DNA from: a virus
Reading direction: 5' to 3' (one strand)
Virus record (IMG/VR): IMGVR_UViG_3300011113_000500
Coordinates: 4,396 to 68,395 of that record
Length of the DNA stretch: 64,000 bases
In this document: piece after piece, positions 7,289 through 62,186 of the stretch
Position numbering within the stretch: position 1 is the first letter of the stretch
Layout: every line of letters starts with the position of its first letter
Position numbers and translations under genes: made by a program
Notes under the pieces: generated by a model
Told to the model about the DNA's origin: nothing
Databases searched by the model: none
What the model saw: only the letters and a program-made list of their open reading frames with translations

Positions 7289-7291
7289 ATC

Positions 7292-7442
7292 TTTTAATTA
7301 GATCCTAAAGATAAGTACAATATTTCAGAAAACCTAAGGAAAAGTAAGAAAAGTTGTAACTCATTGATAATGAACTAGTTACAAATCAATTGATTATAAG
7401 TCGTTGATTATCAATGAGTTAGGTACTTTATAAGAGAACGTA
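7292..7442 (-). repeat. Dispersed promoter/palindrome module (units 7357-7381 and 7397-7421, plus one truncated unit)
   Basis: Near-identical to 3454-3612. Confidence 0.8.
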
Positions 7443-7513
7443 TATTGAACTTATAGCCCGTACGGGTATTTTGGATCATATCGTTTATGATCTTGTTCAG
7501 GCCGTTCTATATC

Positions 7514-8671
7514 TTAATGAGAATCGCCTACATCGTGTTTCTCTCCGTAGATGAGATAGTCTGGATTGATCACTTTGGCAACCTTGTTTCGTTCACCCGA
7601 TGTATGTTTGATTACAATACCTTCATGTGGTACTTTGGTACCTTCAATAAAGTTGTTGAATGTGAATTGATCTTGAATTTCTTGAGACCAAAGCCCAACA
7701 TATAATATTGGTACATGAGGCAAATCAACACCACCAATAAAATCATAAGACTTACCAATCATTGTAAGATGAGTTGCTTCACCAGCAAAATACCTACCAT
7801 CCCACATAACATCGAACCCAGCAAACTCTAACTCCTTCAATCCATAGTCATAGTTCTTTTGAATACCAGGACCATATATCTCACCATAAACTACTACTCC
7901 ACTTCCAACTTCAGCTGGTGTGTGGTTCTTAACAAATGCCCATAACTTGTTTTTGATATCATACTTATCAGCAATTGTTCTCCATACGTCTGTGTCATAG
8001 AAACCTTGAGTATCAGATCCTTTCTCTACGTTATGTGAACCATAAACATATTCATATTCAATCCATTCATCAGCCAAACGTAAGAATTTTTTACACTTAT
8101 CCCAAAATGATAATTTACGTTTCTTAACAATACCATAACGAGCATTTGTACCATGAATCTTACGAGTGATTTGAACATAATCATCTTCACTGAACATTCC
8201 GGTTACATTCTTAATGTTAGGGAACTTATAGTATACCGTGAAGTTAGGATTCTGGTGATACTTGATCTTACGTCCTGATGCTAATTGGACTTGTACTGCT
8301 GGTGGTTCGTATTTAAAGATGCTCATGGCTTCCATCATATCTCTACCCTCAAAGTACTCATTACGAGTACCTTTGTATGGTACGTGCGATAGAGGAATGA
8401 TTAAGCATTCAGAATATACTCCTCTCAATTTAACAGTACGAACACGACCACCTTTACGTAAGTAGTTGGTTACATTCATTGCGTCTGAAAGTTCTTGAGG
8501 TATGACTGCATCTGTTGTTGCTACAACCACTAAGTCATCTACCTTGTACTCTCCTTTCTTGGTGATAGCTTGCCATCCACCTGCTAAGGCTACTTCAATA
8601 TTATCTGCACCTGGAATTGGTATAAGTTCACCAATACGTGCTACATAGCATACACTATTTTGATTTTCCAT
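7514..8671 (-). CDS. RNA ligase, Rnl2/DRB0094 type, with N-terminal OB-like domain
   Basis: IPGADNIE, motif I RKIHGTN, GEIYGPGIQKN, EGIVIK, KVINPDY. Confidence 0.9.
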   Translation of the reverse strand: MENQNSVCYVARIGELIPIPGADNIEVALAGGWQAITKKGEYKVDDLVVVATTDAVIPQELSDAMNVTNYLRKGGRVRTVKLRGVYSECLIIPLSHVPYKGTRNEYFEGRDMMEAMSIFKYEPPAVQVQLASGRKIKYHQNPNFTVYYKFPNIKNVTGMFSEDDYVQITRKIHGTNARYGIVKKRKLSFWDKCKKFLRLADEWIEYEYVYGSHNVEKGSDTQGFYDTDVWRTIADKYDIKNKLWAFVKNHTPAEVGSGVVVYGEIYGPGIQKNYDYGLKELEFAGFDVMWDGRYFAGEATHLTMIGKSYDFIGGVDLPHVPILYVGLWSQEIQDQFTFNNFIEGTKVPHEGIVIKHTSGERNKVAKVINPDYLIYGEKHDVGDSH

Positions 8672-13081: not shown

Positions 13082-13816
13082 TTACTGCTCGATTTTTCCT
13101 ATTCTAAACTTTCCATTTTCATGAATTAAGTACTGCCCCTCATCTAAAGCATCGATAAAGAAATACCTACCACCTGTAGCCTTACCCGTATCGATCCTCT
13201 TTACTTGAGTATGACCTACAATCTGTATATAATCTTTTTTCAAGAATGTTTTCTTGTTACCGGACATCAATGACATCGGGCGGATCCAGATAGGTGTTTG
13301 TGTTTTTGAATCACCATATGGATTGAATCCACAAAACATAAACTGAAGTGGCTTGTATTTCCAGATATCATTTACATAGTCAGCAATACTTCCTGATTCG
13401 TACTTTTCTTGTTCTACCAACCAGTTATGACCTATACCTGCATGGGAACATAAAATGTTATCAAACTGATAGCACATTTGTAAGTGATCCTTGTTCTCTT
13501 CTAACAATTGTCTAATAACAGGAGCTGCACCGTGTTGGTAACCTGAGTATGTTTCACCAAAAGGGAAATAATGGTAATCGTGGTTACCAATCAACATGAT
13601 AACCTGAGTCTTTCGTTGAGTATCTAATCCTTCATCTGTAAAAGCAGTTTCTTTGTATTCAATGATCTCTTTGAAATTGTATTGCTGTTCCGCACTACCG
13701 ATATTAAAGCTATCAAAGTAATCGCCTATAAAGATAACACGATCCGCATTTTCTCTTGCTACGATATCCTTCCATATGGATCGGCCGTGAATATCTCCGA
13801 TGAATATTGTTTTCAT
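13082..13816 (-). CDS. Metallophosphoesterase
   Basis: GDIHG, GDYFD, GNHD, SHAG, VGHT. Confidence 0.9.
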   Translation of the reverse strand: MKTIFIGDIHGRSIWKDIVARENADRVIFIGDYFDSFNIGSAEQQYNFKEIIEYKETAFTDEGLDTQRKTQVIMLIGNHDYHYFPFGETYSGYQHGAAPVIRQLLEENKDHLQMCYQFDNILCSHAGIGHNWLVEQEKYESGSIADYVNDIWKYKPLQFMFCGFNPYGDSKTQTPIWIRPMSLMSGNKKTFLKKDYIQIVGHTQVKRIDTGKATGGRYFFIDALDEGQYLIHENGKFRIGKIEQ

Positions 13817-17205: not shown

Positions 17206-17802
17206 TTACTTGATTATTTTCGTTGTATAAAACATTCCATTATCATCTACTAATGTAATAACATATGTACCAGCTGGAAGTATATCAGAGTTCATCTTAA
17301 TCGTAGTGCTAAAGTAATTATTCTCATACACACAAGATCCATCAACTGCATACATTCTTATCATACCCGAATTGGACGGTGTATTGATATTGAATATACC
17401 GTTAACTGGATTAGGCCATGTCTTAATATTATTAGTTAACTCTTCAGTTACTGAATCAACCCACGGCACTTGTATAGTGTAGGTAGCCACTTGCTGTCCT
17501 GCTCCTAAGTATAATACTGTATCTATACATTGTTCTACCATGCATGGAGCGTCTGAAATAACACATATGTTAAGTGATAGACTATCGATCCCAGGTAGTA
17601 TTCCTATATAATAGTTTCCAGCTGGCTGCTGATTGAACATTATAGATCCTTGGATACCGCCTCCGTAATAATATCCTACTACAGAATATGGACAAGGGCT
17701 GGCATTATCAATGTAAAGATTAAAGGAAGTGAATACCTGTGACGAAGCATTCAATCCGATGAATGCAAAAAGAGTTAAGAAAAGTAATTTGATCTGTTTC
17801 AT
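17206..17802 (-). CDS. Secreted protein with type IX secretion system type-A C-terminal sorting domain
   Basis: Signal peptide, and C-terminus IKTWPNPVNGIFNI...MYAVDG...LPAGTYVITL...TTKIIK. Confidence 0.85.
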   Translation of the reverse strand: MKQIKLLFLTLFAFIGLNASSQVFTSFNLYIDNASPCPYSVVGYYYGGGIQGSIMFNQQPAGNYYIGILPGIDSLSLNICVISDAPCMVEQCIDTVLYLGAGQQVATYTIQVPWVDSVTEELTNNIKTWPNPVNGIFNINTPSNSGMIRMYAVDGSCVYENNYFSTTIKMNSDILPAGTYVITLVDDNGMFYTTKIIK

Positions 17803-19496: not shown

Positions 19497-20012
19497 TTAT
19501 CCTTTTTCTACCCAACGGCATTCGTAATTAGGAAGTACTGCCTTCTTTGCATATGTGTCAATGCAAGGTTTACCGGTATGGTATTTTCCTGCTGCCTTCT
19601 TCCAACATTTAGTCTTTTTATAATTTTCAGACATTATCTTCATGGAAATGTATACATTCAATTCTATACTATCACGCAATGCTTGCTTTGTTACTTTGAA
19701 CCCAGCATAATGCGATGCATATTGTGGCATAATCTGCATAGGACCTACAGCACCGCATCGTGAAGTCTTTCTATGATCGTACAAGCTATCACTAGGCCCT
19801 CGATATGTTGTTTCTAAATAGGCAATATTGAAGGCAACATGTAATGGTATATCAAAGGAATCCGCATATAACACTATGGCATTATACATTCTCTCTGCAT
19901 TGGTTAATGGTGCCGGTTGAATTGGTTCTGGCTCTTCATTATACTTACCAAACATTACTAATGATACCGAAATTAGCAGGCATACTGCTATAAAGTACAT
20001 AACTTTTTTCAT
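19497..20012 (-). CDS. Membrane-anchored lytic transglycosylase (SLT-like)
   Basis: Catalytic ET (AYLETT), GAVGPMQIMP, KYHTG; N-terminal TM. Confidence 0.8.
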   Translation of the reverse strand: MKKVMYFIAVCLLISVSLVMFGKYNEEPEPIQPAPLTNAERMYNAIVLYADSFDIPLHVAFNIAYLETTYRGPSDSLYDHRKTSRCGAVGPMQIMPQYASHYAGFKVTKQALRDSIELNVYISMKIMSENYKKTKCWKKAAGKYHTGKPCIDTYAKKAVLPNYECRWVEKG

Positions 20013-20024
20013 AAGCTTTAATTA

Positions 20025-20109
20025 TAATTTTCATAAAGATAAGTACATTTTTTCAAAAATCCTAAGGAAATGTTAAAAAAGTTGTAAGTCATTGAAAATC
20101 AATGGATTA
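20025..20109 (-). promoter_or_regulatory. Promoter module plus one 25-bp palindrome (20085-20109)
   Basis: CTTAGGATTTTTGAAAAAATGTACTTATCTTTATG on the minus strand. Confidence 0.7.
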
Positions 20110-20113
20110 ACGT

Positions 20114-20139
20114 AAAAAAGGGGCTTTGACACCCCTTTT
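20114..20139 (-). terminator. Rho-independent terminator closing the tRNA/ncRNA transcript
   Basis: Minus strand AAAAGGGG-TGTCAAAG-CCCCTTTTTT. Confidence 0.75.
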
Positions 20140-20164
20140 CTCTGTAGACGTTCCATGTTTAATG

Positions 20165-20548
20165 TTATCCGTTAATTAGTTCTTTCTTTAATTTCTTATC
20201 TGAAAAATAAGTATCGATCAGTTTGTCAACACGCTTATCCGTGTATGACGTGCTTTGTGTAACTGCATCTGTGATTTGTCCGTTTATCTTTAAATCCATC
20301 TCACGCTGCAAATCAGTTACATGTCCATAAGCATGACGCTCCATGTTATCCATTCTACGATCTAAGTCTTCACGAAAACGATGAATACTGTCCCACGTGT
20401 TACGATCCGATGAGTGTATCATCTCTTCTTGCTGTTTAACTGCTCTTAACAATTTGCTAATCTTAACTACACCCCAAACGATTGTTGCTATTGCTATAGC
20501 TCCAACTATCGAGAGCATACCTAAAACAAAATACATTGTTGTTTCCAT
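20165..20548 (-). CDS. Single-TM coiled-coil protein at the end of the tRNA operon
   Basis: 127 aa ORF with hydrophobic N-terminus. Confidence 0.65.
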   Translation of the reverse strand: METTMYFVLGMLSIVGAIAIATIVWGVVKISKLLRAVKQQEEMIHSSDRNTWDSIHRFREDLDRRMDNMERHAYGHVTDLQREMDLKINGQITDAVTQSTSYTDKRVDKLIDTYFSDKKLKKELING

Positions 20549-20587
20549 AATTTATCTCCTTTTATATTTCAAAGAACGTCTACATTG

Positions 20588-20661
20588 TGCGCCCTCCTGG
20601 GATCGAACCAGGCACCTACTGATTATGAGTCAGTTGCTCTAACCGAATGAGCTAAGGGCGC
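20588..20661 (-). tRNA. tRNA with CAT anticodon, probably Ile2 (lysidine type)
   Basis: GCGCCCT/AGGGCGC acceptor; ACTGA-CTCATAA-TCAGT anticodon arm; GGTTCGATCCC T arm; no encoded CCA. Confidence 0.9.
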
Positions 20662-20772
20662 TTGCAGCGTAGTGGGGCTGCAGACCCCTGAGGCTACTAC
20701 GCATTTTATCCTCTTTAGCAAAAGCCATACTCTGGGACGCTGTTCTTATGGGTAGCGTAGCATGTACTTTAG

Positions 20773-20877
20773 TAGTCAGGACAGGATTCGAACCTGTATG
20801 ATGGGTTTTTCGAGAACTTCGTTGTACTTCCTATCCACATCTACTCGATATAGCGTCTACCATTCCGCCACCTGACT
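20773..20877 (-). ncRNA. tRNA-like element 1 (no canonical anticodon loop)
   Basis: AGTCAGG/CCTGACT acceptor, GCGGAATGGTAGACGC D arm, ACAGGTTCGAATCCTGT T arm; TCGAG/CTCGA stem closes a ~29-nt loop. Confidence 0.7.
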
Positions 20878-20933
20878 GTATGTGGGCTACCCTCCTTTCG
20901 TCGCAACCGCCCACCCGTTGTGATTTCAGATTG

Positions 20934-21008
20934 TAGTCAGGACAGGATTCGAACCTATGCTTTCTCATACTATATGAGCGGGCCATTACCAAATTTCGCC
21001 ACCTGACT
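20934..21008 (-). ncRNA. tRNA-like element 2 (aberrant anticodon arm CTCATA-TAG-TATGAG)
   Basis: Same acceptor and near-identical T arm as element 1, with an unrelated middle. Confidence 0.65.
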
Positions 21009-21093
21009 ATTTTGAGGATGAGAAGTCCTCTGTGTTGTGTCATAACTGGATGACCTACCAACTAATTCCTTTCTCAAGGGAACAACACATATG

Positions 21094-21165
21094 TAGTCGG
21101 TAGGGGATTCGAACCCCTATGACAAGAATGAAAATCTTGTATCCTAACCCTTAGATGAACCGACC
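21094..21165 (-). tRNA. tRNA-Glu (TTC)
   Basis: GGTCGGT/ACCGACT acceptor; CAAGA-TTTTCAT-TCTTG; AGGGGTTCGAATCCCCT. Confidence 0.9.
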
Positions 21166-21396
21166 AAGATTAGTATTTACTTTTTTCTTGCCAGCCTTCT
21201 TAACAGCTTTCTGTTTAACTGGTTTAGGTTTCTTTTCTTTCTTAAGTTTTCGATTAGTCATGGATTCTAATACTCCTGGAGCGTATTCAATCTCTGTCTT
21301 GATCGGGCCGTTCTTAAATTTATTAAGATCATAGTACCATATACTAGTGCTAAATTCAGACGTATATGTACGTGTAAACTTTGTTTTGCCTTCCAT
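21151..21396 (-). CDS. Small Lys-rich protein
   Basis: 81 aa ORF; its last codons overlap the 5' end of tRNA-Glu. Confidence 0.55.
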   Translation of the reverse strand: MEGKTKFTRTYTSEFSTSIWYYDLNKFKNGPIKTEIEYAPGVLESMTNRKLKKEKKPKPVKQKAVKKAGKKKVNTNLGRFI

Positions 21397-21409
21397 AACT
21401 CAAAATTAG

Positions 21410-21482
21410 TAGCGGGGGATGGATTCGAACCACCGGCCTTTAGGTTATGAGCCTAACGAGCTACCAACTGCTCTACCCCACA
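21410..21482 (-). tRNA. tRNA-Met (CAT), initiator-like
   Basis: TGTGGGGTAGAGCAGTTGGTAGCTCG TTAGG-CTCATAA-CCTAA ... GGTTCGAATCC; unpaired 1:72. Confidence 0.85.
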
Positions 21483-21491
21483 ATATAAAAA

Positions 21492-22388
21492 TGCCTGAGA
21501 CTACAGCATATGTACTAGGTCTTTTGTCGGATTATGTATTCCCTTCTTGTCCACCAACTTTTGATTGGTATCCTAGCAATGCCGGTTATTTAAGTGAACC
21601 ACTCTTTGAGCTACATGTTTTGGACTACTCTCGTCGTACTCTATCTGTTCAACCCTGCCGAGCTGATTCATCCTTGCGGGACTACAAACTTTTCAAACGA
21701 ATCACCTTAGGCTTGCGACCTTCGATGGCAATGAACAACTCATTACTAGGTAGGCATCTTTCGTCCGTAGCTGGTAAGCACTTATGCTTTGTTAATTATT
21801 AGTTTTGCTGATAATAGTGCAAAGTGTATTAGTTGCAGATTCGGAAAGTAGTGGCTTACCATTAAGCTAACCCATCTTTTGAACGAGTCAATACTCAACT
21901 ACTCTCTGAAGTGTCCCCACTTCCATACTTCAAGAATTCTACGTAAATAAACTTTGGTAAGTCTATCTCCGGTGCAGTAACAGCACCACCTGTACACTGA
22001 CATTGCCTTTCGGCTTTAAGATCCCTCTTGTATTGGAACTCGCAATGATATACTCGGATAAGCATACTTCTTGCAGAATATTCGTTCCTATAGGTTATTC
22101 TTATTGCTCTTCCGAACTCAACCAAATGACCTGCATCACCTGGTCATCAATTCACTTCCCTTACAGTGTCACCCTCAGGTACAAAGAATTGATGATATCC
22201 TACTTGCCTACTCAAGCTCGCAACAACCGAAGCTATTACAAACCGCAAACCACATTAACTAAGGTGATTCACTTTATCCTGGTTTCCCAGTTTATTTAAC
22301 GACCATAGGCGGCCGATTATCATTTATCAGATTAAATGTCTCATAATCAACCCGAAGGTCTCATAATCAACTACTGAATGGATAATAA
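21492..22388 (-). ncRNA. Large structured ncRNA, GOLLD-like (~900 nt; ends approximate)
   Basis: No credible ORF; many UUCG/GNRA hairpins on the minus strand (GACC-TTCG-GGTT, CTGG-GAAA-CCAG, GCC-GAAA-GGC, GGTC-GCAA-GCC); own promoter; lies among phage tRNAs. Confidence 0.65.
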
Positions 22389-22390
22389 TA

Positions 22391-22403
22391 TTTTCAAAGA
22401 ACT
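22391..22403 (-). promoter_or_regulatory. boxA-like antitermination element
   Basis: AGTTCTTTGAAAA between promoter and ncRNA; a second copy GTTCTTTGAAA at 20567-20577. Confidence 0.55.
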
Positions 22404-22417
22404 TTCTATCTTCTAAC

Positions 22418-22480
22418 TTATACCTAAATATAAGTACGATATTTCAATTTTCCTAATCTTTTTGAAACTTTTTTTCAAAA
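22418..22480 (-). promoter_or_regulatory. Promoter for the ncRNA/tRNA operon
   Basis: ATTAGGAAAATTGAAATATCGTACTTATATTTAG, same family as the other modules. Confidence 0.65.
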
Positions 22481-22491
22481 ATGTTTTTTCG

Positions 22492-22577
22492 TACCCGGAG
22501 TGGGACTTGAACCCACACGAGCATTACTGCTCATCAGATTTTAAGTCTGACATGACTACCAATTCCATCACCCGGCC
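22492..22577 (-). tRNA. tRNA-Leu (TAA), 5' end supplied by the HNH insertion
   Basis: TCAGA-CTTAAAA-TCTGA; long variable arm GAGCAGTAATGCTC; GTGGGTTCAAGTCCCAC; acceptor has a G2:G71 mismatch. Confidence 0.85.
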
Positions 22578-23002
22578 ATTCTTTTTGCTTTTAAGGCATG
22601 TGATATCTTTTTTTTATGTTCGTCACTTTTAAATTTACCTTTATTACCTCTCCCGCCAGCGGACTTATCACCGCTACCATTACGGCGACATGCTTCTGCA
22701 TAGCCATATTTTTCAATCGAACGTTCCCATACACTTTTCCATGTACCATTCTCTTTCGAATCATTTACATTCTCTTTAGGAGTACCAAAATATAAATGTT
22801 TTGGATTCGAACATTTCGCATTATTACATTTATGACATAGTAAAATTTTATGTCCAGATGGTATTGTTGTTTTTAAAAACTCTGCTAATAATCCTTTGAA
22901 GTTAGTAGAGTTACCTCCTCGTTCAATACACGCATCAGACATATCTAAATGAAGCTGTCTGTCAGATACCGGCAATTCAATGTAAAGTTTAATATCGATC
23001 AT
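22568..23002 (-). CDS. HNH homing endonuclease
   Basis: LLCHKCNNAKCSNPKHLYFGTPKENVND; C-terminal NUMOD3-like KSDEHKKKISHALK; probable ATG at 23002. Confidence 0.85.
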   Translation of the reverse strand: MIDIKLYIELPVSDRQLHLDMSDACIERGGNSTNFKGLLAEFLKTTIPSGHKILLCHKCNNAKCSNPKHLYFGTPKENVNDSKENGTWKSVWERSIEKYGYAEACRRNGSGDKSAGGRGNKGKFKSDEHKKKISHALKAKRMAG

Positions 23003-23044
23003 ATATTCCTTTAAAATAAATATACACATTGAGCCGATTCTATA

Positions 23045-23073
23045 TGCGTGTCTACCGATTCCACCATCCGGGC
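23045..23073 (-). pseudogene. Orphaned original 5' fragment of tRNA-Leu
   Basis: GCCCGGATGGTGGAATCGGTAGACACG; GCCCGGA pairs fully with TCCGGGT at 22493-22499. Confidence 0.75.
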
Positions 23074-23204
23074 ATTGTTAACTAAATAACCAAGCCACAA
23101 ACCTAAACACACTGGCAACTGCCCATAAAGCAATAACACTTATTGCAAATACTGCAGCCACTGTCGTAAATACATCTACCGGATCTTTTTTCATATATTT
23201 CTTA

Positions 23205-23301
23205 TTAACAATCATAAAGATAAGTACATTTTTTCAAATAGGCAAAGCTTTTTGTAACTTTTTTTCAAAAAAGTTGTAACTCATTGATTATCAAAAGTTT
23301 A
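23205..23301 (-). promoter_or_regulatory. Promoter module plus one 25-bp palindrome (23277-23301)
   Basis: taggcaaagctttttgtaactttttttca shared with 1730-1758. Confidence 0.7.
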
Positions 23302-23818
23302 TATGATGACGCCCTTTAGCACCAAATGGATTACCTACCTGTAGATAATAACAATTGAAGCAAAGCATACGTAAATTCTCCCGTACATGATCATTACGAT
23401 CGCCGTTTAAATGATCCAATAGCAATGGAACGGTATAATCGGTTATTCGTCTTTCTTCAAAACCACAGCAATCACACTTTTCTTCAAACTCGCCAGACCT
23501 TAACAAGCGTTCTTTAAGTTTGTATCGATTGTATCCATAATGTTTACCTTCCAGAATAGCTTTGATACTATACGGTCCAGTCAATTTAACTGGCATTGGT
23601 TTTGGAATACCTTTACCAAACGGATTCTTATGTAGGTCAAACAATGTTTTGCCTGTAGCCGGATCGATATACATTTTAGCATACTTCTTGTATACATCAT
23701 ATGATACCTTAAGGAATCTCGCAGCTCCTTTACATGACTTAGAGTTTTCCATTGCATAACGGATCTCTGTCTCTGTTAAGTTGTAAGGTTGTCTTCCTTG
23801 TCCTTTCGCGAATGGCAT
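23291..23818 (-). CDS. HNH endonuclease-domain protein with N-terminal HTH-like region
   Basis: CDCCG...LLDHLNGDRNDHVRENLRMLCFNC. Confidence 0.8.
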   Translation of the reverse strand: MPFAKGQGRQPYNLTETEIRYAMENSKSCKGAARFLKVSYDVYKKYAKMYIDPATGKTLFDLHKNPFGKGIPKPMPVKLTGPYSIKAILEGKHYGYNRYKLKERLLRSGEFEEKCDCCGFEERRITDYTVPLLLDHLNGDRNDHVRENLRMLCFNCYYLQVGNPFGAKGRHHINF

Positions 23819-23826
23819 AGTCTATG

Positions 23827-24183
23827 TTATAAATGTTCTACTTCAACTTCCGCGCCGTTTTCATTGTCTTCAAACACCGATACATATGTACATTCAAAAT
23901 GTTCTAACAATTCACGCGCAATCATTTCACAACTCATTGCTCCGAATACATGGCTACGATCTGATATACTATAATACTTATCGTGCAGATATTCTATTAC
24001 ATCACGTTTAAACATAATGAATTCAATATCACGGTCATCGTGGTATACTGCTTTCTTAAGTGTTATATGGAACATGTGCCTATGTAAATCTGATAGGAAT
24101 GCTACTTCTGGAAAAATATCTTTTGCAGCAGGCCAACAATGTAACCCATCTACTTGTAGTTTAACTATAACATTTGTTTTCAT
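23827..24183 (-). CDS. dpdL: QueD-like T-fold protein, probable DpdL-type CDG decarboxylase
   Basis: GLHCW, LSDLHRHMF (LxxxHRHxF), HDDRDIEF, SCEMIA, VFEDNENGA. Confidence 0.65.
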   Translation of the reverse strand: MKTNVIVKLQVDGLHCWPAAKDIFPEVAFLSDLHRHMFHITLKKAVYHDDRDIEFIMFKRDVIEYLHDKYYSISDRSHVFGAMSCEMIARELLEHFECTYVSVFEDNENGAEVEVEHL

Positions 24184-29657: not shown

Positions 29658-29906
29658 TTAATTTGGAATTCTGACTTTAAGTTTTGAAATTGCATCTAAA
29701 AACTCTTCTGCGGTTAGATGCTTACCGCGATCCGTAACAATATCGATATGATTAATAATATCATGTTCAGTGTCTATAATTTTTTTAAGTACTTTAAAAC
29801 CGCTAGCGGCCCAAAAGACTCCAAATCCATTATCTTCGCCTAATTGCCTATCATCTTTAATAACATCGTTCATTGTATCATCTGGAAATAGAATAAAATA
29901 TCTCAT
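29658..29906 (-). CDS. Hypothetical protein
   Basis: 82 aa ORF. Confidence 0.6.
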   Translation of the reverse strand: MRYFILFPDDTMNDVIKDDRQLGEDNGFGVFWAASGFKVLKKIIDTEHDIINHIDIVTDRGKHLTAEEFLDAISKLKVRIPN

Positions 29907-30757
29907 TTATTATAAATATTTAATGATTTTATATAATCCTCTACATTTTCTGTCGGATGCCATCCTAGAATATCGTTAGCCGTTGTATCTGTACATAACG
30001 TTTCTTGAGCCTCGCCGGGTTTATCTTCCATATATTCTATATTTGTTACTCCGTACATATTAGCAATATCACGTACTGAATAATTCTTACCACGGCCTAA
30101 TTCAAATTCATATCCCCAAGCATCTCGTTCATATACTTTAATTAATGCATCTACAATATCATGTACATGTGTAAAGTCTCTACGTTTAGAGCCGTCGCCG
30201 TATATTATTAACGACTTTCCTTCCTCTATTCGTTTCTCCCATGCGCCTAATAAAGTACAGTACCCACCTTCCTTTAAATGATATGGGCCATAAACATTAT
30301 AAAATCTAGCTATACTAGCTTTTAAATTATAATGTATTTGAAATAGTTTGATAATTTCTTCACCTACATCTTTGCTAAAAGTATATGGATTTTTAAATTT
30401 ACCTGAATGGTGTGAACTGCTACCGGCATACACTAATGGTATTTCATTTTCCGCACACCATTTTGCTAACTTCATTGTAGCGTTTGCATTTGTGGTAAAA
30501 TATAGTTCCGGATCTGAGAATGATGGCTGTATCCTTGCGGTTGCCGCTAAATGATATACTACATCGAATCTTCCGTATCCGGAATAGTTACTTACATTAC
30601 GTATATCAAACTCAATATACTGACACCCTTTTTGATGATTTGATTTAAGTCCAGTATGATAATTATCAAAAGACACTACCGTATGCCCTTCAGACAATAA
30701 TCTTTTAATTAGATTCGTACCTACAAATCCAGCTCCGCCTGTTACTAGTATGTTCAT
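29903..30757 (-). CDS. NAD-dependent sugar epimerase/dehydratase
   Basis: TGGAGFVG, YxxxK (YTFSK), RFYNVYGP. Confidence 0.92.
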   Translation of the reverse strand: MNILVTGGAGFVGTNLIKRLLSEGHTVVSFDNYHTGLKSNHQKGCQYIEFDIRNVSNYSGYGRFDVVYHLAATARIQPSFSDPELYFTTNANATMKLAKWCAENEIPLVYAGSSSHHSGKFKNPYTFSKDVGEEIIKLFQIHYNLKASIARFYNVYGPYHLKEGGYCTLLGAWEKRIEEGKSLIIYGDGSKRRDFTHVHDIVDALIKVYERDAWGYEFELGRGKNYSVRDIANMYGVTNIEYMEDKPGEAQETLCTDTTANDILGWHPTENVEDYIKSLNIYNK

Positions 30758-31974
30758 AACTTAATTAATTCATGTTCATATGTTTTTACATGTAAAATAG
30801 TAATTTTAAAACAATCGATATGATACTCTCCACATACTTCGTCTATATCTACATCTTTAATTGTTTGTGCTATTACATGCGATAAATTTTGTATGATATC
30901 GAAAGATCCTTGAGTAAATTTGTTAGCATCAAACTCAACTATTATATCATTTTCCGCATATGGATCGTTTTCTTTTTTGATAAGTACGCGAGTACGTAGA
31001 TCAAACTTAGTATTACTCTGCTCCATTTCAATATAGTCTTGTAGTCTACCTATACTGAATACTTCTTCTGTATATATTCTATCACACCATGGTTCTAGGG
31101 CCTGTAACAGACTAAGGTTGCCGTTATTCATTACAAATGCTACATTATATTTAGGCGGTATTATAGGTTTCATTAAAGCGTCATGTTGTACAAAATGTCC
31201 CCATTTACGAATAAAGTTTCGACTACTACGTACATTTTGAGCTTCCCATTCTGTACTATTTTTACCTGGTGTAGTTAACGTAGGATTAAATCTACTTCCG
31301 CGGCATGTCATATGATATACACATCCTTTCCATGTTTGGATGAACTTAACTCCATTTAATTGAAATCTATTAAAGATATCACTATCTTCTTTACTCTGCG
31401 GTGCATATAACGGATCATGTCCGCCTATTTCTTGGAAGTCAGCTTTCATAAATGCCCATGGAGCAAATATGCCTTCTGTTATAGTATTTCCTTTGAAACT
31501 ATCAACCGACGAGAACCATTCCAAAAATTCTCCTTCATTAAAATCTTCAGGCTCAACTCCCCAATCTGCTAATACTTTCTCAGGCCCGTCTGGATGTAAT
31601 GGCGGCTCGATTCTTGTTAATGATACAATTTTTTTAGAACCTATATGTTTTTCAATCTCATCTATTGCGCCCGGGCATAGATACATATCTGCATGATATA
31701 TCATACATACGTCATAACTAGCCACTTCATTGACCAATCTATCATATAAAATAGTATGCCCCAAACGTTCCGGGCCTTCGTTGCGAATACATTTAAAGTT
31801 AGTATCACCGCCTTCTAAAACTTGTTGACACCATTCCCATGTGCCGTCAGTACTAGCATCATCGGCTACGCATATCTCTACGATATGTTCGCCTTGATTG
31901 TCTCTAATTGCTTGATATGCCCATTTAAGGTATTTCAAGTTATTTCTTGTTGGTTGTATTATTGATATGTTCAT
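30754..31974 (-). CDS. Glycosyltransferase family 2
   Basis: VADDASTDGT, HADM, IGGHD, EDSD. Confidence 0.85.
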   Translation of the reverse strand: MNISIIQPTRNNLKYLKWAYQAIRDNQGEHIVEICVADDASTDGTWEWCQQVLEGGDTNFKCIRNEGPERLGHTILYDRLVNEVASYDVCMIYHADMYLCPGAIDEIEKHIGSKKIVSLTRIEPPLHPDGPEKVLADWGVEPEDFNEGEFLEWFSSVDSFKGNTITEGIFAPWAFMKADFQEIGGHDPLYAPQSKEDSDIFNRFQLNGVKFIQTWKGCVYHMTCRGSRFNPTLTTPGKNSTEWEAQNVRSSRNFIRKWGHFVQHDALMKPIIPPKYNVAFVMNNGNLSLLQALEPWCDRIYTEEVFSIGRLQDYIEMEQSNTKFDLRTRVLIKKENDPYAENDIIVEFDANKFTQGSFDIIQNLSHVIAQTIKDVDIDEVCGEYHIDCFKITILHVKTYEHELIKL

Positions 31975-31980
31975 ATTTTT

Positions 31981-32916
31981 TTATTTAAATACATTATGTA
32001 TTGTTTCATATAATTTACTATAATCACGATATCCACGTGCCAGTATGTCATCTTTTTTATCGATTATCGGATATATTGGAGCATTTGATAGTTTCTTGAA
32101 ATATGAATCTCCTTCGAAGTATCCAGGACGTATATCACCTGATGTATTAACATAGATTACAACCGGCATACCGAAGTAACTACATAAAATACTAGAACCT
32201 CCTCCCATTGATATGAATCCGGATGCTCTAGAATATATCTTTAATTGAGACTCATTATATGTACCTGGTATACTTGTTACAATATCATCAAATAGATATG
32301 CATTGTCTAACATTTCAATCAATTGATAATCCGTAATGATACCTACACCCTCAACATTTGCTGATATGTTCGGATTAACTAACTCATTCGGGTCAGTAGC
32401 AAACTCAGTATTTTTAGGTCGTTTATATATAACAGAATAACCCTTTTCGGTTAAGTATGTAATGATATTATATAAGGATTCTATATCAAAATATCCTACC
32501 GGTGATACCCCATGTTCTAGATTATAACGATTTGATATCACAATAAAATTATCTGGTAATTCTAACGATGCATCAAAATACTTAGTTTTATAATCCGGAG
32601 CTATCCATTTTGAATAATCTAAACATCCATTCATTTCATATTGTTCAGCTTCAGTTAGTTCCGAATAATCTTTACCTGTCAATGCTATAGCATTATGATG
32701 TATCCATGTATTCGGCAAATTCTGCACTCCATTAGTTCTGTTATCTACACTACGTTTAGAATATCGCTCTTCAACATCATCTGTAAAGAAATAAAAAGGC
32801 TTCATATCTGTACATGTGATCACTTTTTCTAACATGCCATGTTGTTTCAGCCAATTAGCATATGGAATTGAACAAACTAATTCATATCCAAATTCTGGGT
32901 ACACATCAATTGTCAT
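31981..32916 (-). CDS. Glycan-modifying protein, GT-B-like
   Basis: EFGYEL...FISMGGG; lies within the glycan island. Confidence 0.45.
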   Translation of the reverse strand: MTIDVYPEFGYELVCSIPYANWLKQHGMLEKVITCTDMKPFYFFTDDVEERYSKRSVDNRTNGVQNLPNTWIHHNAIALTGKDYSELTEAEQYEMNGCLDYSKWIAPDYKTKYFDASLELPDNFIVISNRYNLEHGVSPVGYFDIESLYNIITYLTEKGYSVIYKRPKNTEFATDPNELVNPNISANVEGVGIITDYQLIEMLDNAYLFDDIVTSIPGTYNESQLKIYSRASGFISMGGGSSILCSYFGMPVVIYVNTSGDIRPGYFEGDSYFKKLSNAPIYPIIDKKDDILARGYRDYSKLYETIHNVFK

Positions 32917-33625
32917 AGTAATATTCCTTTAACTGTTTTAACTGTTCATCTATATCAATTGTTTTGATATGCGGTATTAAACATTTATCAATACCTTTAT
33001 CAACTGGTATAATATCGATACGTTTATTAAATATTTGCGATATGAATTGTAACAATGAATGTTTAGATATGCAGTTTCCAGATACTATCGTCTCTACATT
33101 ATATCTATCCCAATCTGACATCAAACATTCACATTGTTTAGCCCATTCATATGTAGTAATACCATTCCACATAGCTTGTGTATATCCATTACACGAATCA
33201 TCGTTAGTATTTAAAAACCATTCGAGTAAACTTTTCTTATCACGCAGCTCCGGTCCGATTATCGAACTTTTTATAATCTTCGTACGTTTACCATGTAATA
33301 CAATATAATCGCGAGATACTTTTTTAGACAATCCATAATCATCGTTATCCATTTCACAGTCAGTACCAGGATGTATAATTCTAGCATTTGAATTCATATC
33401 TAGCCAAGTCGGTAACATCGAGTTAACATTAAAGTCAGATGTTTTTTGCGGTATTGCGCCTATAGCATTAATAATAAAATCTCCAGAAAAATTTTCTACG
33501 GCTGACATAAATTCCTTTGAAGGGAATCTACTATCTATTGTAGATATATCATGGCCTTTATCTTTAAAATACTTTACAAGCATATGGCCTAACATGCCAT
33601 TATGACCTAGGATTAAAATATTCAT
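32906..33625 (-). CDS. NDP-4-keto sugar reductase (RmlD-like SDR)
   Basis: GHNGMLG, TDC, YGLSK, SIIGPEL, WNGIT. Confidence 0.8.
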   Translation of the reverse strand: MNILILGHNGMLGHMLVKYFKDKGHDISTIDSRFPSKEFMSAVENFSGDFIINAIGAIPQKTSDFNVNSMLPTWLDMNSNARIIHPGTDCEMDNDDYGLSKKVSRDYIVLHGKRTKIIKSSIIGPELRDKKSLLEWFLNTNDDSCNGYTQAMWNGITTYEWAKQCECLMSDWDRYNVETIVSGNCISKHSLLQFISQIFNKRIDIIPVDKGIDKCLIPHIKTIDIDEQLKQLKEYYYDN

Positions 33626-34532
33626 AACTACTTAAAATATTATTTAATTCATTCTTTTCAACAACTACTTTATCACTAGAAAAATCTGTGAATGGTAAAC
33701 TTTCGTTATATACATCTTTATAGTGCATGATATAATATCCGTTATTTGTTTTTACCCTAGGAGCCTCTTCTATAGAAAACATTGATTCATGAATTTTTTC
33801 TGAAATACGTGGCACTCCTATTTCGTATTCTAGTCCGAATAATTCACGATAGATTTCAAACAAATCTATGATTCTAAATGCTTTTACATCTGGTATTACG
33901 TTATATCCTGTCAATGTCAATGCATGTTCTATCAAATCAACAGCCTGTTCCGCAGTTATCATAAATCTAGTCATTTCGGTTGAATATACTTTCAATTTAT
34001 ACTTTTTACGTATAGCATCCCATATTAATGGAATCACACTTCCGGTAGAATTCAATACATTACCATATATCGCTGAAGATAATAGTACATTTGATTTCTC
34101 TGCATTTACAATAAAAGATTCGCCGGCTACAAATTTCATTGCACCGTACAATGTAGTAGCGGCTCTAGATTTATCCGTTGATACAAAGCATGCGGCTGAA
34201 AAATCATTTTCTTCTGCGACACGTCTCGAATTAACAGCTCCATTAATAATAGTTTGTACGCCTTCTTCTATGTTCTGATCGACTGCCTCGATCTGTTTTA
34301 ATGACGCAGCAAAAATACCAATGTCATGCCCTTTCGATGCTCGCTTCATTAAATCAAAATTACGCACATCTCCTATCACACAATTGATATTAGGAAATTC
34401 TTTTTTAAGATAATAATGTTTAGCTTCGTCACGACTATAAATAGTAATTTCATTATCGTTATAGTAACGATCTATCAAACTACGTCCAAGGAATCCAGCT
34501 CCTCCAGTAATAAAAATTTTCTGATTTTTCAT
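33600..34532 (-). CDS. UDP-GlcNAc 4,6-dehydratase-like (PseB/FnlA/CapD family)
   Basis: SRDEAK, GDVRN, STDKS, YGAMK, YGNVLNSTGSVIP, MTRF, EKIHE. Confidence 0.85.
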   Translation of the reverse strand: MKNQKIFITGGAGFLGRSLIDRYYNDNEITIYSRDEAKHYYLKKEFPNINCVIGDVRNFDLMKRASKGHDIGIFAASLKQIEAVDQNIEEGVQTIINGAVNSRRVAEENDFSAACFVSTDKSRAATTLYGAMKFVAGESFIVNAEKSNVLLSSAIYGNVLNSTGSVIPLIWDAIRKKYKLKVYSTEMTRFMITAEQAVDLIEHALTLTGYNVIPDVKAFRIIDLFEIYRELFGLEYEIGVPRISEKIHESMFSIEEAPRVKTNNGYYIMHYKDVYNESLPFTDFSSDKVVVEKNELNNILSSYEYFNPRS

Positions 34533-34544
34533 ATGATGAATATA

Positions 34545-35438
34545 TTAAAGATTATTCGTAAAATCTAATTTTGTGATCACTTTGTTATTATAAATTGGTT
34601 TAACAAATGTCTCAGAATCATGATCTGGCAATCGACCCCATTTATTAATAAACTTCTGCATATTATTTTGTTCTGATACTTGTTGTCGACTCGACTTCGA
34701 AGTTAGTTTATCTTTCGCCTCATCACGAAAATGACTGCCGCGCGCACTGAAATGATATACTACTGACTTGCTAGTCATTTGAAATTGATAGCCTTCTAAT
34801 TGCATACGTATGAATAAATCCATATCCTCCCAACTAGCAGGAGCAAATAATGGATCATTGCCGCCGATGTACACATAGTCATCTTTACGACAAAAGAATC
34901 CTGCACCTCCGCCTTTACGAACAGATATATCATTAGTATTAGAAAATTCTAACGCCCATTGATCAAAATATTTGCTATCAAAATCATTATGATATGCTCC
35001 GAATTCTTCTTTGGGCACAAATATCGTACCGGGACGATATTCTGGATCGTTAGGAAATATCTTTGGTTGTATTCTAAAGGATGATGCTATAAGTCTAGTG
35101 TTAGGATCTAGTCCTTCGTATAACTTAAGTAATTCTAAATCTTGATTAGGTGCAATCCACATATCAGAATGAATAATATTGACAAATTTTGTTTGTGCCA
35201 TATCTACGCATATATTCATTCCACCGCCGATTCCCTTTTCATATTCATTTGATTCGATTCGATACGTTAACTTTAGCTTATCCGCATTCTGCTCTAACCA
35301 TTCATTAGTTCCGTCCGTACAATTTTCTGCGTAAACAACAATAGGTTGTTCTTTATAAAATGCATTCTGCCGTACAGATTGAATCGCTAACTTAAGATAT
35401 TCTAAATTATTATTTGTAGATATGCAAGTAGTAATCAT
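34545..35438 (-). CDS. Glycosyltransferase family 2
   Basis: ENCTDGT, HSDM, IGGND, WEDMD. Confidence 0.85.
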   Translation of the reverse strand: MITTCISTNNNLEYLKLAIQSVRQNAFYKEQPIVVYAENCTDGTNEWLEQNADKLKLTYRIESNEYEKGIGGGMNICVDMAQTKFVNIIHSDMWIAPNQDLELLKLYEGLDPNTRLIASSFRIQPKIFPNDPEYRPGTIFVPKEEFGAYHNDFDSKYFDQWALEFSNTNDISVRKGGGAGFFCRKDDYVYIGGNDPLFAPASWEDMDLFIRMQLEGYQFQMTSKSVVYHFSARGSHFRDEAKDKLTSKSSRQQVSEQNNMQKFINKWGRLPDHDSETFVKPIYNNKVITKLDFTNNL

Positions 35439-36154
35439 ATTTCTTTTTCCCAATCAATTAATTTAGTAAGCCAATATGATTCCCCATGTGTTGAATATCC
35501 CGGTAGAGGACTTATCAAACGTCTGCCTTTAGCTCCTAATTCTAAAAACATAGAGAAATCATATGGATGTCCTTGCTTTTGTCCGGTTTCTGGGTGATAA
35601 CCGTTTGTAAATTTACGTATGATATCTTCATCATCTTTCAGTGTACCTGCCAATGCCGCAAAGGTCATTGTAGTTGAATTTGTGATTTTCCAATGACATG
35701 AGTTTGTAAGAAACACACGCGTCTCTTCACTATTATCCTTACATAACTTATTACCTCCTAGATTTCTTGGCATATACTTATCTGGATGATCATATAAGGT
35801 AACATAATCTACATTTAACATAAAAGCTTCTTTTAATGCCTTATCTGCTCCAGTACGATGTATATAATCATTTTCTACAAAGTATACCAACGTATCATCT
35901 GATAATTTTAAAGCTTCTTCAAACGCTAACGTAAACGTACCGGCGCCGTTGCCTATTTTACATTGAATGATATTTTCATTTGCTATATATGTACGAATCA
36001 TATTAAGCGTAGCATCGCTGACATTATCAGCTATAATTGTTATATCATTACTACCGAAATGCTTAGTAAAGTTACGTAAACAATTTTCGTTATTAATATA
36101 CGATGGCTTTACTTTATTGTAACCGCCATCAGATATTCTATAATAAACTTTCAT
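35435..36154 (-). CDS. GT-A fold glycosyltransferase-like protein
   Basis: IIADN, YFVENDYIH, LYDHPDKY. Confidence 0.65.
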   Translation of the reverse strand: MKVYYRISDGGYNKVKPSYINNENCLRNFTKHFGSNDITIIADNVSDATLNMIRTYIANENIIQCKIGNGAGTFTLAFEEALKLSDDTLVYFVENDYIHRTGADKALKEAFMLNVDYVTLYDHPDKYMPRNLGGNKLCKDNSEETRVFLTNSCHWKITNSTTMTFAALAGTLKDDEDIIRKFTNGYHPETGQKQGHPYDFSMFLELGAKGRRLISPLPGYSTHGESYWLTKLIDWEKEI

Positions 36155-36156
36155 TT

Positions 36157-42965: not shown

Positions 42966-42967
42966 AC

Positions 42968-61881: not shown

Positions 61882-61882
61882 G

Positions 61883-62176: not shown

Positions 62177-62186
62177 AACTATTCCT

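Follow-up and report, generated by a model that had tools for sequence, protein, structure and literature searches.

A GOLLD-family giant RNA gene preceded by a conserved boxA-like leader motif in a viral tRNA cluster

What is encoded by a stretch of about 900 nucleotides that lies amid the tRNA genes of a virus, and how is it transcribed? These questions are raised by the minus strand of the window, that is, the whole 64,000-nt stretch of viral DNA analyzed here, in which a preliminary description had proposed a GOLLD-like giant noncoding RNA transcribed in the manner of an rRNA operon. GOLLD RNAs are among the largest and most elaborate RNAs of bacteria and phages; their three-dimensional structure is known, and their transcription and processing are not addressed in the GOLLD literature covered here. 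The family itself is already known, and what is added here is a conserved boxA-like leader motif, which, being common to phage tRNA arrays and tmRNAs, offers a concrete and testable handle on GOLLD biogenesis. The RNA comprises two domains:

21907..22390, minus strand: GOLLD 5' domain, with the P1 helix and its variable UUCG-capped extension followed by conserved helices
21492..21906, minus strand: GOLLD 3' domain together with the variable linker, the portion covered by the Rfam model

When compared with the Rfam GOLLD model (RF02032), positions 21492-21906 of the minus strand matched it from end to end (1-416 of 416) with 263.9 bits (E 4.8e-74), compared to a gathering score of 150 bits, and both strands of the GOLLD pseudoknot were aligned by cmscan (CAGCUACGGAC as the 5' strand and GUCC...GUAGCU as the 3' strand). 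The ~490 nt located 5' of this match constitute a covarying GOLLD 5' domain, which two huge phages and more than 100 contigs of uncultured phages also possess: the consensus fold of 45 of its sequences (mutual identity below 85%) contains 93 base pairs, compensatory changes occurring at 76 of these, and the domain further harbors a 31-nt anchor motif (22300-22270). A pattern scan for the 3' domain yielded 11 loci, all 11 of which were GOLLD and resided within tRNA arrays, two of them with a tmRNA. Based on the RF02032 score, the covarying 5' domain and the scan loci in tRNA arrays, the ~900-nt RNA is with near certainty a true member of the GOLLD family. The family call of the preliminary description was thereby borne out: covarying homologs were found, and of the two Rfam models it had named GOLLD matched, while ROOL gave no match in the window at its gathering score or at an E of 1 or better (19500-24000). 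According to PMC12286853 and PMC5737381, ROOL is likewise a large phage RNA found near tRNA islands, and it forms cages.

The proposed size of ~900 nt held as well, the distance from the leader motif to the GOLLD 3' end being 911 nt (22402-21492, minus strand, with both ends as read from the sequence), of which the gene itself would span 22390-21492, about 900 nt. The abundance of hairpins with UUCG and GNRA loops that had been remarked upon exceeds chance, as 8 such hairpins, each closed by 3 or more pairs, were counted in 22402-21492, compared to a mean of 2.5 (sd 1.6) in 500 first-order Markov simulations, only one of which reached 8.

As described in PMC12286853, the GOLLD RNA env-38 forms a D7 14-mer nanocage, solved by cryo-EM; for a 3' domain, a decamer was reported. 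The RNA studied here resembles GOLLD, as represented by RF02032 and env-38, in its full 3'-domain match, its large covarying 5' domain and its interdomain linker, and also in its phage origin, its tRNA cluster and its adjacent Met-tRNA. Moreover, a gene for an HNH endonuclease adjoins the cluster, a neighborhood that has been reported for GOLLD clusters of mycobacteria as well. It differs in its linker, which is short and carries no embedded tRNA, and in its 5' domain, whose class it shares with two huge phages and with uncultured phages of freshwater and aquatic origin. Extrapolating the oligomer from env-38 to this 5'-domain class, we predict that this GOLLD is likely to assemble into a cage too.

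Upstream of the 5' domain lie the following elements:

22458..22478, minus strand: AT-only palindromic motif TTGAAAAAAAGTTTCAAAAAG, 5' of the promoter-like box
22425..22456, minus strand: promoter-like element, consisting of a TTAG(G) "-33-like" box, a 20-nt spacer and a TATATTTA "-7" box (22432-22425)
22391..22402, minus strand: boxA-like leader motif GTTCTTTGAAAA, exact site

The palindromic motif TTGAAAAAAAGTTTCAAAAAG is part of a 61-nt repeat (D4) with another copy at 23215-23275, and with up to 3 mismatches it has 4 matches in the window compared to 0.05 expected; it is probably a promoter-associated or regulator site. The promoter-like motif constitutes a repeat family of its own (D1), with 5 copies located 5' of genes. 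In related GOLLD loci, TAnnTTT[AG] was found 5-50 nt 5' of the leader motif in 64 of 97 cases, compared to 123 of 1716 control windows, and 56 of those 64 loci have a TTG 17-23 nt further 5'. The resulting consensus, TTG-N21-TAnnTTTG, resembles what we take to be the Bacteroidota promoter type, although the "-33" box in the window reads TTAG rather than TTG. The promoter that the preliminary description had placed here stands as a conserved promoter-like motif with its TATATTTA box; the generic sigma-70 scan remained at chance level (11 found, 13.6 expected). From the TATATTTA box to the leader motif there are 22 nt here and 9-37 nt across the 64 related loci, a spread showing that the leader motif is no constant part of the promoter.

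The promoter consensus, together with a neighboring gene whose product carries the T9SS sorting domain Por_Secre_tail (E 6.2e-9), points to a Bacteroidota host, and with phage genes present in the window (Pfam, PHROGs) we consider it to be probably part of a large uncultured phage of such a host. A scan of genome contigs returned one 744-nt MAG contig, and so no host was found by this route. Among 50,697 GenBank phage records searched with the GOLLD stretch by blastn, only LR745206.1 and LR756502.1 were matched, their 5' domains being ~70% identical over roughly 340 nt and their GOLLD scores reaching 287 and 275 bits, respectively. The former carries AGTTCTTTGAAAT in its leader and differs from our locus in having a tRNA directly 5' of the leader, with no promoter box seen, whereas the latter is without the leader motif.

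The leader motif GTTCTTTGAAAA, which extends to AGTTCTTTGAAAA at 22403-22391 (minus strand), is the boxA-like site that had been noted 5' of the giant RNA, and it turned out to be a conserved trait. Counted with at most one mismatch and 20-150 nt 5' of the 5'-domain anchor, it is kept in 97 of 105 unique related GOLLD loci and missing from the other 8. In 64 of the 97 it is exact, and the variants include GTTCTTTAAA (14 loci), GTTCTTTGAC (5), GATCTTTGAA (3) and GCTCTTTGAA (1), such that the core TCTTT is invariant and positions 2, 8 and 10 vary. The motif is retained even where it lies 35-41 nt from the anchor, which leaves no space for P1 and its hairpin. Within the 64 kb of the window, GTTCTTTGAAA occurs exactly at two minus-strand sites, 22402-22392 and 20577-20567, and with up to one mismatch at 8 sites, compared to 2.1 expected (none of 100 shuffles reached 8).

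Some of the one-mismatch sites fall within coding sequence. Several one-mismatch sites located ~490 nt 5' of tRNAs were considered as possible leaders of a hidden RNA, a candidate that was rejected, as 3 of the 5 examined lie inside conserved coding sequence and Rfam shows no additional RNA family there.

In PMC5725501, the gamma-proteobacterial boxA consensus is given as GYTCTTTAANA, from which GTTCTTTGAAA departs at position 8 only. PMC13753749 gives AUGAUCUUUGAAA as the consensus of the B. subtilis rrn boxA, with NusB binding shown by NMR, and UGCUCUUUAACA as its E. coli counterpart; it also states that boxA precedes CRISPR operons and that the Nus interfaces are conserved in Bacteroidota. 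GTTCTTTGAAA and the B. subtilis consensus have UCUUUGAAA in common, and the leader variants GATCTTTGAA, GCTCTTTGAA and GTTCTTTAAA correspond to known rRNA boxA variants. The motif resembles the rrn boxA of E. coli and B. subtilis in being an 11-12 nt element with a TCTTT core that deviates from the published consensus sequences at one or two positions at most and is located in the presumed leader of a probable stable-RNA operon, long and untranslated. It differs in that the operon is a phage's and its main product a giant non-ribosomal RNA, and in that boxB and boxC were not recognized. The boxA elements of CRISPR arrays and suhB (PMC13753749 and PMC5725501) likewise act on untranslated or leader RNA outside the rRNA operons, though these are cellular loci of Gammaproteobacteria, whereas ours belongs to a phage, probably of Bacteroidota.

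Its conservation, its place before tRNAs and tmRNAs and its variants within the published boxA range make Nus-factor antitermination plausible, and we lean toward a putative role of the leader motif as a boxA acting through Nus factors. That the RNA is a GOLLD while its leader motif is something other than a Nus-factor boxA, be it a processing signal, a site at which a regulator made by the phage binds DNA or RNA, or an unpaired segment of the folded, mature GOLLD, seems less likely to us, yet has several observations in its favor. The TTC...GAA arms of the motif form a partial palindrome that could be read by a dimeric DNA-binding protein, and the boxA literature covered, including PMC5725501 and PMC13753749, does not state a Bacteroidota boxA. 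Genome-wide enrichment is absent in three large GOLLD phages, in which the 10-mer is near background (7-8 sites, compared to 1-7 for a control pattern), and in five other large phages the motif was not found near the tRNA-like clusters. RNAalifold, moreover, pairs CUUU of the motif with a distant AGAG over 4 bp; this pairing exhibits no compensatory change and meets a U-U mismatch at one position in 9 of 45 sequences, and with no such change for or against it the motif may have a role inside the fold.

Against these alternatives stands the strong strand bias of the motif outside the leaders, where its density is 0.28 per kb on the same strand of the loci and 0.05 on the opposite strand (7.1 in the leader itself), as well as the parallel between its invariant TCTTT with variable positions 2, 8 and 10 and the published boxA consensus sequences cited above. 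Furthermore, it recurs directly 5' of phage tRNA arrays and tmRNAs that have nothing in common with the GOLLD fold: among 65 additional sites on the same strand, 23 are located no more than 40 nt 5' of a tRNA or tmRNA start, compared to 62 of 2160 random positions. The boxA reading would also predict that Bacteroidota rRNA leaders and spacers carry GTTCTTTGAA(A) or the variants of the GOLLD leaders. If it is true, then GOLLD, phage tRNA arrays and phage tmRNAs would make up a previously unrecognized class of Nus-dependent phage operons, and we tentatively predict that phages of this group borrow, via boxA, the machinery with which the host transcribes its rRNA in order to produce stable RNAs of their own. 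We did not find the leader motif described in the GOLLD literature covered; the original GOLLD, mycobacterial GOLLD and boxA-evolution accounts might mention it. The letters GTTCTTTGAAAA also appear in the Mycoplasma and phytoplasma literature, presumably as rRNA-spacer primers.

The remaining elements of the locus are located on both sides of the RNA:

22491..22577, minus strand: tRNA-Leu(taa), 5' of the GOLLD promoter (ARAGORN; Rfam tRNA 43.8 bits)
21409..21482, minus strand: tRNA-Met(cat), 9 nt downstream of the 3' end of GOLLD (ARAGORN, Rfam)
21151..21396, minus strand: orf81, a small lysine-rich ORF (81 aa) between tRNA-Met and tRNA-Glu
21093..21165, minus strand: tRNA-Glu(ttc) (ARAGORN, Rfam)
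20933..21008, minus strand: tRNA-shaped element A, 76 nt, called tRNA-Leu(tag) by ARAGORN (Rfam tRNA 33.4 bits)
20773..20877, minus strand: tRNA-shaped element B, 105 nt (Rfam tRNA 22.5 bits; repeats D2, D19)
20587..20661, minus strand: tRNA-Met(cat), final tRNA in the cluster (ARAGORN, Rfam)
20567..20577, minus strand: second boxA-like motif, GTTCTTTGAAA, 9 nt 3' of tRNA-Met and 18 nt 5' of the orf127 ATG
20165..20548, minus strand: orf127, with an N-terminal membrane helix (read from the translation) followed by a coiled-coil-like region
20114..20137, minus strand: terminator-like hairpin AAGGGG-TGTCAAAG-CCCCTT with a T run on its 3' side, found by eye
19497-20012: SLT lytic transglycosylase, the next gene 3' of orf127 (SLT domain E 9.6e-9)

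The tRNAs and tRNA mimics that had been noted 3' of the giant RNA are all present on its strand, in the order Met, Glu, two tRNA-shaped elements and Met, and five tRNAs were counted within 2 kb of GOLLD. In related loci, 206 of 207 tRNA or tmRNA genes lie on the GOLLD strand; of 52 evaluable loci, 10 have the next tRNA no more than 15 nt past the GOLLD 3' end and 11 have it at 16-50 nt, which makes only 21 with a tRNA within 50 nt. In the closest relative (locus L009), orf81 is 85% identical over 81 aa (tblastn) and orf127 73% identical over 124 aa; orf81 has no Pfam or PHROG family, and matches to the N-terminal part of orf127 were also found 3' of GOLLD in another 6 loci. The second boxA-like site had been reported correctly, and its arrangement is identical in L009, with motifs 5-10 nt 3' of a tRNA found also in L024, L072, L069, L083 and L038; as a second copy after internal tRNAs, it recalls the boxA of the 16S-23S spacer. 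As for the reported terminator, a hairpin with a T run is indeed seen by eye at 20137-20114, but the automatic terminator scan, which was at chance level, reported nothing for the minus strand.

Taken as a whole, it is quite likely that this arrangement constitutes a single operon of roughly 2.3 kb with its own promoter and GOLLD as its first gene. Its order would be the TATATTTA promoter, GTTCTTTGAAAA, GOLLD, tRNA-Met, orf81, tRNA-Glu, the two tRNA-shaped elements, tRNA-Met, the second boxA-like site, orf127 and the terminator-like hairpin. The claim that it is transcribed like an rRNA operon is supported by comparison: the conservation of the leader motif, the Bacteroidota-type promoter, the tRNA and tmRNA sites and the variants within the boxA range all suggest it.

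We propose that the boxA-like motif, once transcribed, would recruit the host's NusB-S10 along with the remaining Nus factors, the way rRNA operons do, and that the Nus complex would shield the long untranslated transcript from Rho. The complex may also assist the co-transcriptional folding of GOLLD, such that the same chaperone-like assembly that folds rRNA would fold the 900-nt chain before the cage is built. RNase P, cutting at the abutting tRNA-Met, would generate the GOLLD 3' end, a step that the distance to this tRNA makes reasonably probable, and the mature RNA would then form a homo-oligomeric cage like the one whose structure was determined for a different GOLLD. To this overall explanation, a GOLLD-led stable-RNA operon with a boxA-like leader, an RNase P-made 3' end and cage assembly, we assign a probability of roughly 60%. 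Co-transcription in an antiterminated stable-RNA operon could explain why GOLLD is located among tRNAs, and the boxA-like leader points to the way in which an untranslated RNA of such length may escape Rho and acquire its ends. No NusB, NusG or Rho-like domain was found by Pfam among the 59 window ORFs of at least 81 aa.

The two tRNA-shaped elements share common ends, AGTCAGG...CCTGACTA. In element A, the called "anticodon" is preceded by A and followed by T, and the fold z-score is -1.65; element B has the acceptor and T arm of A and a normal D arm, with a 54-nt middle replacing the anticodon and variable arms, and it was not called by ARAGORN, its 22.5 bits being below the Rfam tRNA cut-off of 29. 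Judged by at least 29 bits, U33 and a purine at position 37, neither element is a canonical tRNA. An analysis of 131 elements revealed that they belong to a separate and widespread family with constant tRNA-Leu-like ends and hypervariable middles, which look like tRNA-Leu-derived scaffolds that are apparently undescribed.

The preliminary description had further suggested that the giant RNA and these mimics act together, and had proposed their co-occurrence as a check. They do cluster on the same strand of the window, about 500 nt apart, and two other GOLLD loci (L005 and L055) have such elements; nevertheless, mimics were found in only 3 of 70 GOLLD loci with 1.5 kb of flanks, GOLLD was found in none of 5 large mimic-bearing phage records, three of which are 99-100% complete, the mimic 3' end occurs in one of 3 large GOLLD records, and L009 reads Met-Glu-Met with no mimics in between, making it very unlikely that the two form one functional unit.

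That the region codes for protein, or is left over from a group I or group II intron, has a negligible probability, for although "ORF-free" does not hold literally, with four mechanical ORFs of 63-127 aa overlapping the GOLLD region, these have no match in Pfam or PHROGs, no Rfam intron family was found at an E of 1 or better in 19500-24000, conservation tracks base pairs rather than codons, and the RF02032 match together with the covariation of the 5' domain rules such an identity out.

In three runs labeled as metatranscriptomes, from two studies, contigs at least 90% alike to the locus span 21463-22368, with strand and ends that are not readable and with DNA carry-over being possible. Their coverage drops near 22370 and none extends over the flanking protein genes (22671-24000 and 19500-20250), an observation that we do not count as evidence. 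A single contig, whose end we do not take to be that of the RNA, stops at 22374 and continues in adapter letters.

The preliminary description had assigned the giant RNA to the GOLLD family on size, context and resemblance, and this call passed a formal covariance-model test: the Rfam GOLLD model RF02032, which covers the conserved 3' domain only, aligned in full (416 of 416 positions) to 21492-21906 of the minus strand, scoring 263.9 bits where the gathering score is 150 (E 4.8e-74), and the Rfam alignment placed the two strands of the long-range pseudoknot. In 19500-24000, Rfam returned neither ROOL nor any group I or group II intron family at E ≤1, and none of the four mechanical ORFs overlapping the GOLLD region had a Pfam or PHROG family. 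The region was likewise hairpin-rich, as described, with eight UUCG/GNRA hairpins versus 2.5 expected. The RNA adds one more member to an established family, of which others had earlier collected 806 non-redundant examples (PMC12286853). It lies within the following array, in minus-strand order:

22577-22491, minus strand: tRNA-Leu(taa), first in the array
22478-22458, minus strand: AT-only palindrome (21-mer), TTGAAAAAAAGTTWCAAAAAG
22432-22425, minus strand: promoter-like TATATTTA box
22402-22391, minus strand: boxA-like leader motif, GTTCTTTGAAAA
3' end at 21492, minus strand: GOLLD RNA
21482-21409, minus strand: tRNA-Met, starting 9 nt past GOLLD
between tRNA-Met and tRNA-Glu, minus strand: 81-aa ORF, 85% identical in L009, the closest related locus
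after the 81-aa ORF, minus strand: tRNA-Glu
21008-20933 and 20877-20773, minus strand: tRNA-shaped elements A and B
20661-20587, minus strand: second tRNA-Met
20577-20567, minus strand: second boxA-like site, GTTCTTTGAAA
20165-20548, minus strand: 127-aa ORF with an N-terminal membrane helix, 73% identical in L009
20137-20114, minus strand: GC hairpin and T run

The stretch upstream of the Rfam-modelled domain (22390-21907) was ~70% identical to the huge-phage genomes LR745206.1 and LR756502.1, which also score as GOLLD (287 and 275 bits, respectively). A 3'-domain pattern retrieved 11 IMG/VR loci, all of them GOLLD by Rfam (one truncated at a contig end), and a 31-position 5'-domain motif (22300-22270 of the window, hereafter the anchor) retrieved at least 121 further stretches. 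Ten of the latter were checked in Rfam: eight scored 266-328 bits, one that is cut off scored 139 bits, and the tenth, whose locus stops 70 nt past the motif, had no match; loci outside these ten were assigned to GOLLD from the 5'-domain motif and alignment. From the 68 loci with enough sequence we chose 45 sequences of <85% mutual identity, and their consensus 5'-domain fold comprised 93 pairs, with compensatory changes in 76. Helix P1 (ATTATC 22386-22381 with GATAAT 22321-22316) was not drawn by RNAalifold in this 45-sequence alignment; by eye it covaries there, for example as ATATC/GATAT in L004 and GTTAT/ATAAC in L005. One related locus, L015, is a 744-nt contig from a Methylocystis MAG bin; it carries both the 5'-domain motif and the leader motif, and is most likely a mis-binned phage fragment.

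The boxA-like leader, the part of the preliminary description that was expected to fail, held. After identical copies were collapsed, 108 unique loci remained, 105 of them with at least 150 nt upstream, and GTTCTTTGAA with at most one mismatch stood 20-150 nt ahead of the anchor in 97 of these 105 (among the loci listed); it was absent from that interval, at the same threshold, in L003, L013, L028, L030, L059, L062, L095 and L103. Motif density was 7.1/kb in the leader window, versus 0.28/kb on the rest of the same strand and 0.05/kb on the opposite strand. The forms selected by our script, whose frequencies are inflated by choosing sites with at most one mismatch, were GTTCTTTGAA (n=64), GTTCTTTAAA (n=14), GTTCTTTGAC (n=5), GTTCTTAGAA (n=4), GATCTTTGAA (n=3), GTTGTTTGAA and GTTCTTTGAT (n=2 each), with GTTCTTTGTA, GTTCTTTGAG and GCTCTTTGAA seen once each. 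The distance from the motif to the -7 box ranged from 9 to 37 nt (mode 26-28), a variability more in keeping with a transcribed element than with a part of the promoter. The motif was retained at 35-41 nt before the anchor, where P1 and its hairpin cannot fit. RNAalifold paired the motif's CUUU with a distant AGAG, one position being U-U in 9 of the 45 sequences, and no compensatory change was found in these pairs.

Related loci held 65 further same-strand motif sites, of which 23 had a tRNA or tmRNA starting within the next 40 nt (versus 62 of 2160 random positions) and several sat 5-10 nt past a tRNA, like the second site of the window; some one-mismatch sites were plain coding sequence. Genome-wide, the 10-mer stayed close to background in three large phages that carry GOLLD; in five further large phages, which lack GOLLD, it was at background and away from their tRNA-like clusters. 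Phage tmRNA genes occur in the GOLLD-strand clusters of L012, L010, L028, L035, L038, L059, L062, L072, L073 and L081, several of them with a boxA-like motif directly ahead.

A Nus-type boxA is a candidate reading of the leader motif, tempered by the genome-wide counts, the coding-sequence sites and the CUUU-AGAG pairing. The Gammaproteobacteria boxA consensus is GYTCTTTAANA (PMC5725501), and the B. subtilis rrn leader carries AUGAUCUUUGAAA, with NusB binding seen by NMR, its E. coli counterpart being UGCUCUUUAACA (PMC13753749). The GOLLD-leader variants keep the TCTTT core and differ at positions 2, 8 and 10, exactly where these published consensus sequences differ. The latter source also reports Nus interfaces conserved in Bacteroidota and boxA ahead of CRISPR operons (PMC13753749). 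A full-text literature search for GOLLD and boxA returned no paper on bacterial RNA, judging by title and abstract. The words 'upstream', 'terminat' and 'RNase P' are absent from the GOLLD cryo-EM paper, a 2026 review lacks 'promoter' and has antitermination in a reference title only, and a 2017 motif paper lacks 'boxA' and merely suggests co-transcription with tRNAs. The leader motif is thus not mentioned in the literature examined.

A generic sigma-70 scan of the window stayed at chance level. The TATATTTA box is one of five copies of a motif repeated before genes at 19-26 kb, and among the loci listed TAnnTTT[AG] occurred 5-50 nt before the leader motif in 64 of 97, versus 123 of 1716 control windows, with TTG 17-23 nt further upstream in 56 of the 64. 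The resulting consensus, TTG-N21-TAnnTTTG, corresponds to the housekeeping promoters of Bacteroidota; the upstream box of the window itself is TTAG, an imperfect fit to TTG. In the 33 loci that lack the box, a tRNA often lies immediately upstream, a pattern consistent with transcription continuing out of a tRNA array. The AT-only palindrome TTGAAAAAAAGTTWCAAAAAG recurs on the minus strand at 22458-22478, 23248-23268 and 1739-1759, ~25 nt upstream of TAnnTTTA boxes (4 matches in the window versus 0.05 expected), and may serve a class of phage promoters as an operator or an UP-like element.

Nearly all tRNA and tmRNA genes of the related loci (206/207) lie on the GOLLD strand. Across 52 evaluable loci, the next tRNA began ≤15 nt past the GOLLD 3' end in 10 (tRNA-Met in five), 16-50 nt past it in 11 and further away in nine, with none in the available flank of 22; from these distances, RNase P cleavage at tRNA-Met likely makes the GOLLD 3' end, though not universally. 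According to structural papers, GOLLD env-38 is a D7 14-mer cage with separate 5' and 3' domains and a disordered linker directed inward (PMC12286853), a 3' domain by itself forms mainly decamers (PMC12990946), and both papers state the function as unknown. As to expression, 20 public runs shared words with the stretch (15 recorded as RNA), and four were compared: contigs ≥90% alike from three metatranscriptome-labelled runs (two studies) covered 21463-22368, and a fourth run, probably DNA, covered 28 of 30 bins. Because the contigs lack strand and end information and the runs were chosen for containing the GOLLD stretch, they give only a weak hint of expression.

Elements A (33.4 bits as a tRNA; without U33 and purine 37) and B (105 nt, 22.5 bits) are identical at their 3' ends and nearly so at their 5' ends. 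Their common 22-nt 3' end occurred in more than 136 IMG/VR stretches, at ≤4 copies per kb, and AGTCAGG lay within 200 nt upstream of 133 of the 156 copies listed, 129 of these elements being unique. This family (loci L137-L272), which is widespread among phages, combines constant tRNA-Leu-like acceptor, D and T arms (AGTCAGG...CCTGACTA) with a hypervariable middle, spans 54-182 nt and has one to five clustered copies per phage record. The D-arm start TGGCGGAAT was 78-95% conserved, though unconstrained by the search pattern, and matches tRNA-Leu genes of cultured phages. The 131 middles fell into 115 sequence clusters, 104 of them singletons, and folded slightly better than shuffles (mean z-score -0.66). 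ARAGORN called a tRNA in 26 of 129 elements, with scattered anticodons, Rfam gave weak tRNA matches alone, and both ends together were found in no GenBank phage record searched. The elements may serve as naturally occurring tRNA scaffolds or as decoys; the proposed joint action with GOLLD was not supported by a co-occurrence check, in which they were not tied to it.

The 64,000-nt window comes from a record of 68,395 nt with a CheckV completeness of 39%, which puts the full phage genome at roughly 175 kb, and all ORFs ≥150 aa in the window lie on the minus strand. Nearby genes encode two HNH endonucleases, an SLT transglycosylase, ClpS and an Fe/Mn superoxide dismutase; more distant ones encode a family-B DNA polymerase, a clamp-loader-like ATPase, a chaperonin, an RNA ligase and radical-SAM enzymes. 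The ORF at 17206-17802 (minus strand) carries Por_Secre_tail (E 6.2e-9), a C-terminal sorting domain for type IX secretion; this domain is typical of Bacteroidota and suggests a host in that phylum.

Immediately ahead of the tRNA-GOLLD cluster are the two HNH homing-endonuclease genes (22568-23029 and 23291-23818, minus strand), the first of which ends within tRNA-Leu; a GOLLD-tRNA-HNH association like that of the window is also found in mycobacterial tRNA clusters (PMC6582537). Directly downstream, the 127-aa membrane/coiled-coil protein (20165-20548) and the SLT lytic transglycosylase (19497-20012), both on the minus strand, form a possible lysis pair, and N-terminal relatives of the former follow GOLLD and tRNA-Met in six other loci. 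On the minus strand, 6629-8671 and 13082-13816 together encode an RNA ligase (PF09414 with an OB fold) plus two calcineurin-like phosphoesterases, a set that may serve RNA or tRNA repair in this tRNA- and mimic-bearing phage. The ~20 kb run at 29903-49409 (minus strand), with sugar epimerases/dehydratases, glycosyltransferases, methyltransferases and a radical-SAM enzyme, is a polysaccharide/glycan modification cluster, unusually long for a phage. Finally, 60666-63442 (minus strand) encodes GTP cyclohydrolase I, a presumably QueD-like PTPS-family enzyme and a radical-SAM enzyme, with a phosphoribosyltransferase adjoining, a set that we take to be consistent with a 7-deazaguanine (preQ0-type) pathway.
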